Source: Cladosporium halotolerans
Lineage: Eukaryota
Assembly: GCF_011745625.1 (NCBI RefSeq)
Contig: NW_027191459.1
Span: 744,001 to 808,000, forward strand
DNA length: 64,000 nt
Reading direction: 5' to 3'
Shown: positions 11,445 through 13,936 of the stretch, in pieces
Numbering within the stretch: the stretch's first letter is position 1
Layout of the letters: each line of letters opens with the position of its first letter
Position numbers and translations under genes: made by a program
The notes under the pieces: generated by a model
What the model saw: only the letters and a program-made list of their open reading frames with translations
Database searches by the model: none
What the model was told of the DNA's origin: nothing

Positions 11445-13936
11445 ATGGATTCTTCCACTACTACCTTTCCACCATCCGAACTTCTGGAGCTCTGGTTCAT
11501 CGGCCAACATGAGACAAGCCGCGCCACCCCGAATGGCCCTAGCCAGACCTTGAGAGACGCTCAAGATGTTGGATATGATATGCTTACCACTCCAATCACT
11601 ACAGCGAGCTTTCAAGCCAGAGTTGCGACACAAGTTGAGGAGCACCTTCAGAAACTCTCATCTGCAACTTCGCCGGATGCCGTCCCGGTGCCCTTGATCT
11701 CTCCATTCTCACCCAAGGACACCGAATTAACGCCCAATGATAGCAACTCTGCACTGGTTGCTGTCTCCAGCCCATGGATCGACCTAGGCTCTACAGACCC
11801 TCTGATAGCGAATGTCAGTCTGCAAGTCTTCAACTTAGAAATTGCCTACGCCGCATTCTGTGGTATCCAGCATGTGATGTTGCATGGTCCGCTCCCTGGT
11901 TCCAACACTGTCCTGTACGCCCGTGCAGTCTCTGAAGCTCTCGGTATGGGTCCGTACATCCAGCTCCATATTCTGCTTCCAATGGTCGGAGAGCTTGAAC
12001 AGGAGAGCGGAGATGGCACTCACCTAGCTGAACTTGCTAGAGAGCAAGACGTCAGCCTGCCTGAAGAAGACGACCTCTCCGAAGATGACTTCAGTTCCTG
12101 GGACACGTGGGACACCCTCAGGACTGTCTGCGATTATGACTCAAGACTTTCAATCGGTAAGCTGAGTTTCTACTATTTCTTCTATTCCACTTTTTTTGGG
12201 TCCCTGCACTACCTATACATTCGCTGCTGTGTCAAATTACCTTTGCTCTTCCGAGGGGATGGATAGTCAGGGCTACTGTAAGACCAACCCACCTGTTGCG
12301 TGTGCCAAATTATGGAGCGGTTTACTGACCTTCCTGCGTTCTTAGCCCTTGAAATCCCACGACAGCTTCCCAACAAGCAAGTTCAGTCTCGTTGGTATTC
12401 CGAGCCAGTCAGAAGCATGATCTTCCCTCACACGTCATTCCTGCGAAACGCGAAAGGGTTTCCGGTTTTGCACAAGAGCCACCAGCAGTATTTGACGCAG
12501 TTCATGCGCCTCCGCCAGACGCCGTGGATTCTCCTCGCCGATGTTGACCCCATCGTGCCCAGGACGGAGAGTCCGGCTCCCGAGCCCACACCTGCTGAAG
12601 CTGCGAACCTCGTGCAGAAGGACCCCGTTCCTCACTTGCGTTATCTGCGGCACTTGCAACAGACTCAGCCCCCGCGAGCGCCCATCGAAAGGTTCGGACA
12701 AGGGTACCAGGATTACATGCAGTCTCCACTCCAGCCGCTGTCCGACAATTTGGAGAGTATTACTTACGAGGTCTTCGAAAAGGATCCCATAAAGTACGAC
12801 TGGTACGAGCGTGCTGTCGCTCTCGCTCTCAAGGATCTCTCGGCTAAAGTCGGCGGCAAGAGAGAGATCATTGTAGCGGTAGTCGGTGCAGGCAGGGGAC
12901 CTCTGGTATCGAAAGCGCTGTTGGCGAGCCGTTCAAGCGGCGTCAAGGTGAAGTGCTGGGCCGTCGAAAAAAACCAGAACGCCTACGTTCATCTGCAAAG
13001 GAGAAACGTCACCGACCGCTTGTGGGATAACAAAGTCACCATTGTCAAGACGGACATGCGCGCATGGAAGGGCCCCGTCGTGGACGGTAACGTCGAGAAG
13101 GTGGACATCCTGGTCTCTGAGCTACTTGGCTCGTTCGCAGACAACGAGCTCTCTCCAGAGTGCCTTGACGGCGTGCAGCATGTCCTCAACCCAGAGCATG
13201 GCGTCAACATTCCTCAAAGCTACAGTGCACACATGACGCCCATATCCACACCACGCCTCTATCACGATCTCCTTAGCCGTGGAGGCACCGAGAAATGGGA
13301 AATTCCATACGTCGTTATGTTCCAGCAATTCGACTTCTTGTCACTTCAGCACGATAAAGATGAGAATCCTTTGGCGGATGTGCAAGATGCTTGGGTGTTT
13401 TCTCACCCGGCACCGACGGTCATTCTAGACCAAGCAGAGGCTCGAAGAGGTGGTAGTGCAGAGAACGGCGGCGCTGGGGGTGCCGTCGGCGGAGACGGAA
13501 GCAACGAGCACAACTCGAGATCTTGTAAGGTCAAATTTACCATCCAGAATCATGGAGTCTGTCACGGCCTCGCCGGATATTTCGAGTCGGTGCTATACGC
13601 AAGTGAAAGCGGCGAAAAGGTGGAGCTGAGCACCAACCCGGTCACTATGGAAGCCAAGAGCTGCGACATGATCAGCTGGTTCCCCATCTTTTTCCCGCTC
13701 AAGGTAAGCCATCATGATACTCCAGCGTTCGCCTACAGCATTTACTAACTCCTACGCAGACTCCTATCCACCTGCCTGACAACGCTGAACTCGAAGTCAG
13801 CATGTGGCGACAGACGGACGACAGGAAGGTCTGGTACGAGTGGGTCGTGGAGGCTTTTGTCCGTTTGAACGGTCGCAAGCAGCGCGTTGCAATGTCAGAG
13901 CTGCACTCCAGCCGCAAGAATGGCTGTCTGATGTAA
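11445..13936 (+). CDS. SKB1: Protein arginine N-methyltransferase 5 (PRMT5/Skb1/Hsl7), introns 12157-12345 and about 13704-13759
   Basis: SPWIDLGS...EIAYAAFCG TIM-barrel region; DYMQSPLQPLSDNLESITYEVFEKDPIKY, VVGAGRGPL, VEKN, DILVSELLGSFADNELSPECLDG, MISWFPIFFPLK. Confidence 0.97.

Follow-up and report, generated by a model that had tools for sequence, protein, structure and literature searches.

Here we report that, in a 64,000-nucleotide (nt) stretch of Cladosporium halotolerans DNA (contig NW_027191459.1, positions 744,001 to 808,000; hereafter the window, in which all coordinates are counted), the gene at 11445..13936 (+) is PRMT5/Skb1 of a C. halotolerans-like fungus, and that its first intron combines a strong productive 5' splice donor with a candidate poison donor whose position is conserved across two fungal classes. 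We propose that intron 1, with its two donors, acts as an unproductive-splicing switch in the transcript of PRMT5 itself, a reading to which we give about even chances.

Intron 1 is a 189-nt phase-1 GT-AG intron (12157..12345, +), and its position is kept across Pezizomycotina orthologues. Use of its productive donor (donor 1, TCG/GTAAGC, 12157..12162, the slash marking the splice junction) is seen in contigs of runs X16, X17 and X3, which skip exactly these 189 nt at depths of 27, 34 and 31; the runs are not recorded as RNA, and our treating them as such relies on the skipping of both introns of the gene in their contigs. The candidate poison donor (donor 2, ACT/GTAAGA, 12278..12283) is the positional counterpart of a motif found in relatives and lies 68 nt upstream of the shared acceptor (TAG, 12343..12345, from the TTAG ending at 12345 and the contigs). 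The sole branch-point match in the intron (TACTGAC, 12323..12329) would serve both donors. As a preliminary description of this DNA had claimed, either retention of the intron or use of the GT at 12278 brings in the in-frame TAG at 12264..12266 and costs the protein its methyltransferase domain: translation terminates after 273 amino acids (aa), retaining positions 1-164 of the 252 of PF17285 (part of the TIM barrel) and losing PF05185 and PF17286. The rest of the gene, on the same strand, comprises exon 1 (11445..12156; N-terminal part of the TIM barrel, from protein identity and domain search), exon 2 (12346..13703; remaining TIM barrel, catalytic domain and most of the oligomerisation domain, from contigs and domains), the 56-nt intron 2 (13704..13759, from contigs), which lies 3' of the premature stop, and exon 3 up to the stop codon (13760..13936, from contigs and protein identity). 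The spliced product matches the annotated C. halotolerans protein P0241 (748 aa; TIM 43-343, catalytic 352-526, oligomerisation 529-748) at 742/742 compared residues, and the PRMT5_TIM, PRMT5 and PRMT5_C domains of the PRMT5/Skb1/Hsl7 family are all present (E values of 1e-51 to 1e-72). At the intron-2 junction (13703-13763), X3 differs by three letters, which probably reflect a codon that differs in that strain where exon 3 begins.

The evidence for donor 2 is its conserved position and not the score of any individual site, as judged from orthologous sequences. A metagenome scan gave 80 PRMT5 loci, of which the 74 that reach query residue 1 were examined together with the window (L038, L065, L069 and L073-L075 were left out for missing upstream DNA; L063 is truncated, and L041 has a short intron that the pattern missed). 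Among these 75 sequences, 50 share the phase-1 position of the intron, 23 lack the intron and 2 are unassigned; the 50 represent 37 distinct introns, 34 of them at least 100 nt long, the window included. Of the 34 long introns, 27 have the motif RG/GTA at a distance of 48-72 nt upstream of the acceptor (52-68 in the cases observed), where shuffles predict 0.54. Within the same introns it occupies 27 of 850 positions in that zone and 2 of 3,606 elsewhere, and 5 of 90 crude unrelated long-intron candidates carry it, after removal of 3 that proved to be PRMT5 introns. Carriers include 14/14 other Capnodiales sensu lato, 11/12 Leotiomycetes and the unplaced L036 and L062, as placed by a quick protein tree with named references and no bootstrap; no locus was identified as belonging to the Sordariomycetes or Eurotiomycetes. 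Eight of 15 clusters of alignable introns carry RG/GTA, in a count in which L014 and L016 join the Helotiales cluster, probably through chance links. Conservation of the second donor, which the preliminary description had named among the results that would support it, therefore holds for position across relatives, as expected of alternative splicing coupled to nonsense-mediated mRNA decay (AS-NMD), but the window itself has a different donor at the same distance. Extra or displaced copies were seen in L055 (AG/GTA 133 nt before the acceptor) and L057 (31 nt). Two other measures were dropped: global-identity clustering of the introns, because shuffled pairs scored equally high, and a peptide-signature count over read-through proteins (38/73), because many of its windows were mis-anchored.

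In the 28 two-donor introns (the 27 RG/GTA carriers and the window), use of donor 2 would give a premature stop every time, inside the extension in 24 and by a frameshift stop in exon 2 in 4, and the extensions fall in frames 0, 1 and 2 in 6, 9 and 13 cases. Given these mixed frames and the universal stop, donor 2 is not kept for a protein variant. Two further possibilities were considered and rejected: a micro-exon between an internal AG and donor 2, because every plausible AG breaks the frame, and re-initiation at an extension ATG in frame with exon 2, because such an ATG exists in just 4/28 loci. The window has an ATG at 12259-12261 in intron 1 that would be in frame with exon 2 after donor-2 splicing.

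The two donors also differ in strength. Donor 1 has +5G in all 28 introns and is of the GURAG class in 23, whereas donor 2 lacks +5G in 24 and is AG/GU without +5G in 22. Donors without +5G work in these fungi: of the 34 distinct loci counted, 3 rely on one for the last PRMT5 intron. AAG/GUA complements the 5' end of this fungus's own U1 small nuclear RNA (snRNA), the duplexes of donor 2 with U1 range from -4.3 to -9.7 kcal/mol, and in 22/28 introns this duplex is weaker than that of donor 1. The three own-genome U1 genes (L082-L084) score 45-49 bits, under the Rfam cut-off of 69.5; they nonetheless show the expected 5' end, an Sm site and the two loops that bind proteins in U1, and their 5' end is complementary to AAG/GU rather than CAG/GU. 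Of the competing poison donor in the preliminary description, a weak and positionally conserved second site is thus borne out, but use of 12278 was not seen in contigs.

The proposed mechanism would run as follows. Donor 1, strong and with +5G, is the default and yields full PRMT5. Donor 2, weak, at a normal short-intron distance from the common branch point and acceptor, and predicted to be hidden by a hairpin in many species, would leave 74-149 extra nt in the mRNA and so a premature stop, leading to degradation or to a dead TIM-barrel fragment. We consider it probable that donor 2 is used in splicing, and the resulting transcripts would presumably decay by the nonsense-mediated pathway. The most likely input would be the supply of small nuclear ribonucleoproteins (snRNPs), and we hold an input from PRMT5 or snRNP supply to be an evenly balanced proposition. 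Methylation of Sm proteins by PRMT5 serves snRNP assembly, according to passages of PMC7380451, and weak 5' donors are affected first upon PRMT5 loss, according to passages of PMC3778243. Because of these two properties, a shortage of PRMT5 would shut off donor 2 and increase the productive mRNA, and ample snRNP would divert transcripts into the poison form. A weak, often masked poison donor set against a strong productive one therefore would have the sign of negative feedback. A similar readout is described for Mdm4-type mRNAs, sensors of PRMT5 activity in which a weak 5' donor reports Sm methylation and snRNP supply (passages of PMC3778243); there the weak donor is productive and belongs to another gene, whereas here the poison donor would be the weak one, in PRMT5's own transcript. 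This genome has a pICln-like gene, and in Neurospora splicing has been studied with PRMT5 knockdown strains (PMC4549623, in part).

An unproductive isoform would also fit data from C. fulvum. In the main-text passages and supplementary files 1-12, 25, 26, 31-33 and 35 (of 39 files) of PMC11694984, each of the two isolates has two transcript isoforms of skb1 (CLAFUR5_11030). The Race 5 gene also has two protein isoforms, which diverge in PF05185 and PF17286 and not in the TIM domain. This difference fits a stop in intron 1; the event type is absent from the tables. In supplements S12 and S13 of the same study, PRMT1 (CLAFUR5_10274) has 3-4 protein isoforms, and this second arginine methyltransferase may likewise be splicing-regulated.

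Several observations weigh against the proposed switch. The intron is missing in 23/75 sequences, at least 3 distinct sequences have a short version of it, and RG/GTA is absent from 7 of the 34 long ones. Single donor-2 scores are unremarkable (shuffle P of 0.05 or less in 3/34; 0.39 for the window). The window has ACT/GTAAGA at -68 in place of RG/GTA, its donor 2 is unmasked (upstream pairing 0.25 versus 0.55 in shuffles), its intron is alignable to no other (best z 4.0), and its donor 2 could be a chance occurrence (1-9%). The Helotiales hairpin described below displays next to no covariation: 1 of 15 pairs changed on both sides, and 37/500 and 125/500 shuffles score as high. No contig joins 12277 to 12346 in the three runs covering the junction, although contigs drop rare forms (four runs were compared, the junction lying outside the coverage of X8 contigs), and a donor-2 junction peptide for the 28 loci was found in none of the proteins searched. 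The C. fulvum tables consulted give no event type for skb1, in a study in which 40% of genes are called alternatively spliced. Finally, the link between the switch and PRMT5 activity is one that we infer. The precise absences (L020-L022, L024-L028, L030-L035, L037, L039, L040, L047-L049, L056, L064 and L066) correspond to Aureobasidium, most Pleosporales and two others, and a 54-nt intron in L044-L046 is nested among intronless Pleosporales.

The missing donor-2 junctions are consistent with a different role for the site, in which donor 2 is a decoy that binds U1, is rarely spliced and stalls the intron, so that the unproductive form is the retained intron. One X3 contig (151 letters, depth 2) aligns unspliced over 12128-12277, as retention would predict; its final letter is unaligned, at the place where a donor-2 junction would start, so that the contig is ambiguous and perhaps reflects a single molecule or an end error. 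Retention is, moreover, the conserved unproductive event of fungal srp2, as described in passages of PMC4379411. On the other hand, the site holds a spliceable distance of 52-68 nt to the acceptor, and in L008 retention yields no stop whereas donor-2 use does. We consider such a decoy unlikely. Retention is in frame and stop-free in some Cladosporium loci (L008:2289-2498; P0004, P0267 and P0274), where gene callers read through the intron. The proposed switch resembles the AS-NMD of SRSF5 and of Neurospora srp2 (passages of PMC4379411) in that a gene connected with splicing has a conserved fungal intron of unusual length, alternative processing of which produces a stop. The srp2 case, as those passages present it, differs in that the intron is retained, an SR protein is what is controlled and the intron shows no notable sequence conservation; in PRMT5, the target is an enzyme upstream of snRNP assembly, and what has been conserved is a second donor together with a hairpin.

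Equally unlikely is that the switch is real in relatives but has decayed in the window species, leaving GTAAGA as an incidental match. Decay would account for the lack of RG/GTA, the unmasked donor and the unalignable intron. However, a consensus-like donor (GTAAG) falls 48-72 nt before the acceptor in only 1.1% of 5,000 dinucleotide shuffles of the window intron (any donor-like word, 8.8%), the species is nested among RG/GTA carriers on the tree, its intron is still long, and the alignment of the X3 contig stops exactly at 12277. We therefore read the window's site as a probable donor turnover, with the distance retained and the sequence changed. The window intron is predicted, from folding alone, to form a stem between 12202-12216 and 12259-12272 (together 12202..12272, +) with an inner hairpin at 12240-12257. 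Its 5 outer pairs have probabilities of 0.94-0.98, it contains the stop codon and it ends 5 nt before donor 2; the intron as a whole folds worse than shuffles (z +1.84). An anti-donor pairing of UUAC with donor 2 was also considered for the window and rejected (P 0.0).

The difference in donor class suggests another input, S-adenosylmethionine (SAM), sensed through N6-methyladenosine (m6A) in U6: low SAM or low Mtl16 would shift splicing to the poison donor and so reduce a SAM consumer. Donor 1 mostly belongs to the methylation-dependent GURAG class and donor 2 mostly to the methylation-independent AG/GU class, the same class switch is described for METTL16 mutants in passages of PMC11732430, and a METTL16-family gene is present in the genome. 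The window does not fit this scheme, because both of its donors are GURAG, as they are in L072; in addition, donor 1 lacks +4A in 5 Capnodiales, and AG precedes donor 1 as well in 18/28 introns. We regard U6-based sensing as somewhat less probable than either a decoy or decay in the window species.

Across 30 introns (a set that includes L029 and L059, both without RG/GTA), the bases around donor 2 pair upstream beyond shuffles in 23, with a mean of 0.63 versus 0.43 and 15 introns at P of 0.05 or less. The Helotiales share a conserved element of about 55 nt amid poorly conserved flanks, predicted to form a 9-bp stem over donor positions -8 to +1, with extra pairs to +4/+5 and an outer 4-bp helix; 95.7% of cells in this hairpin are paired, versus 39-52% in slid controls. 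In a Cladosporium subgroup (L006 and L009-L011), a stem of 10-11 bp with another sequence is predicted to cover the same donor positions. By these models, donor 2 often lies hidden within a hairpin that is particular to the lineage. The Pseudogymnoascus-like L057 does not have the hairpin of the Helotiales.

Such a hairpin might instead be bound by a specific protein (a PRMT5 substrate or methylosome partner) or by a metabolite, and the binding would unmask or mask donor 2. The Helotiales element shows conserved sequence in place of covariation, and a CUGA beyond its main stem is invariant; the motif is also translated in 8 or more other gene-call read-throughs. The layout is also that of type III fungal thiamine pyrophosphate (TPP)-riboswitch introns (passages of PMC5882874), with two donors, a stop between them, one acceptor and a downstream donor under base pairing. 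By contrast with those introns, Rfam finds no TPP aptamer here, and the structure lies upstream of and over donor 2 with a lineage-specific sequence. A model of the Helotiales element matches only its 11 training loci among 42 sources, none of them in Capnodiales or the window; the element has no Rfam match and would be small for an aptamer. A bound hairpin is accordingly, in our estimate, rather improbable.

Less probable still is two-step splicing, in which AG/GU would mark an exon of zero length where two introns abut, and the donor-2 product would be spliced further into normal mRNA. Complex introns spliced in two steps are known in fungi (passages of PMC7138796), and these stwintrons, or complex intervening sequences, are likewise long introns with a second internal donor; AG precedes donor 2 in 24/28 introns, and a branch-point-like CUGA lies 32-36 nt upstream in 11/11 Helotiales. 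Most carriers nevertheless lack an internal branch point plus acceptor, and excision of the inner part rebuilds no splice signal. The upstream word is missing in 14/15 Capnodiales and present in 1/15, the window has a single branch point and no AG at donor 2, and the Helotiales word hardly ever departs from CUGAG, unlike the true branch points of those introns, which vary. Two-step splicing would be conceivable for Helotiales alone.

The preliminary description had proposed instead that intron 1 mimics an snRNA bound by Sm or snRNP proteins; this is not supported, lack of conservation goes most of the way to refuting it and, of all the explanations, we find it the least credible. The strings on which it was based do exist at the coordinates given, namely the two donors, the TAG, a U tract at 12189-12199, a hairpin at 12197-12215 and TTACCT at 12237-12242. 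The intron resembles Sm-class snRNAs (U1 and U2) in its tract of U residues, its UGCAC and its UUACCU, but set against this fungus's own U1 and U2 it shows none of their defining features. Chance levels were taken from the 5,000 shuffles, and occurrence from the 34 long introns. An Sm-site-like tract occurs in 20% of shuffles and 3/34 introns; the strict Sm pattern occurs in one intron, which is not the window's. The window reads AC-U7-GG, without a purine-A directly before the U run, versus AAUUUUUGA in the fungus's own U1. A hairpin with a TGCA loop, claimed to resemble a U1A/U2B'' site, forms in 26% of shuffles and 8/34 introns (the TGCAC string alone, 20% and 2/34). The loop in the intron is CCUGCAC as opposed to the AUUGCAC of the own U1, the quoted pairing has a probability of 0.002-0.003, and its bases pair instead with 12259-12272. 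The UUACCU said to mimic the U1 5' end has its TTACCT in 15% of shuffles and 3/34 introns, and the probability that UUACC pairs with donor 1, as was also suggested, is 0.0 in the folding ensemble. This hexamer is not kept even in near relatives, because position 12240 is T in X3 (giving UUAUCU) and read-through proteins of four close strains show the matching Pro-to-Ser change. The named element as a whole was found only in the window (1/34), allowing up to 3 mismatches, and Rfam, run on the window, intron and L053, returned one tRNA plus sub-threshold noise and assigned no part of the intron to an snRNA family. The tract resembling an Sm site, the hairpin resembling a U1A site and the hexamer resembling U1 (12189..12242, +) are therefore present at chance level and unconserved, and we do not count them as part of the element; among the features of the intron tested by shuffling, only the second donor exceeds chance. 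Splicing feedback on PRMT5, the broader claim, is plausible, although this route to it is not supported. Taken together, these comparisons indicate that intron 1 is neither an snRNA mimic nor a TPP riboswitch nor, in the window species, a stwintron.

Elsewhere in the window, a short-chain dehydrogenase gene (10126-10860, -) is divergent from PRMT5, a major facilitator superfamily transporter gene lies downstream (about 14950-16784, +), and there is a tRNA gene at 25356-25430 (+).

A literature search, with most subscription journals outside its coverage, found no published description of a PRMT5 intron switch, and a main-text term search of two fungal RNA-motif surveys (PMC5640933 and PMC8216456) did not find the PRMT5 intron. 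PRMT5 is known to act through weak donors on how other genes are spliced, and we found no report of PRMT5 itself being controlled in this way. The Helotiales hairpin adds an undescribed conserved RNA element, and the natural losses of the intron in Aureobasidium and many Pleosporales offer a built-in comparison. The cassette, of about 120 nt with two competing donors of different classes, would give filamentous fungi a compact reporter of either the supply of snRNPs or the methylation of U6. More broadly, and tentatively, the intron could be an ancient PRMT5 homeostat of the Pezizomycotina, in which a hairpin-gated poison donor would read snRNP supply or SAM status (the latter perhaps sensed by way of U6 m6A, or by the Helotiales element as a direct binding site) and in which the sequences of donor and hairpin would have turned over from lineage to lineage as the layout was kept. 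If the proposed switch is true, it would provide direct feedback from the output of the spliceosome to the methylosome.

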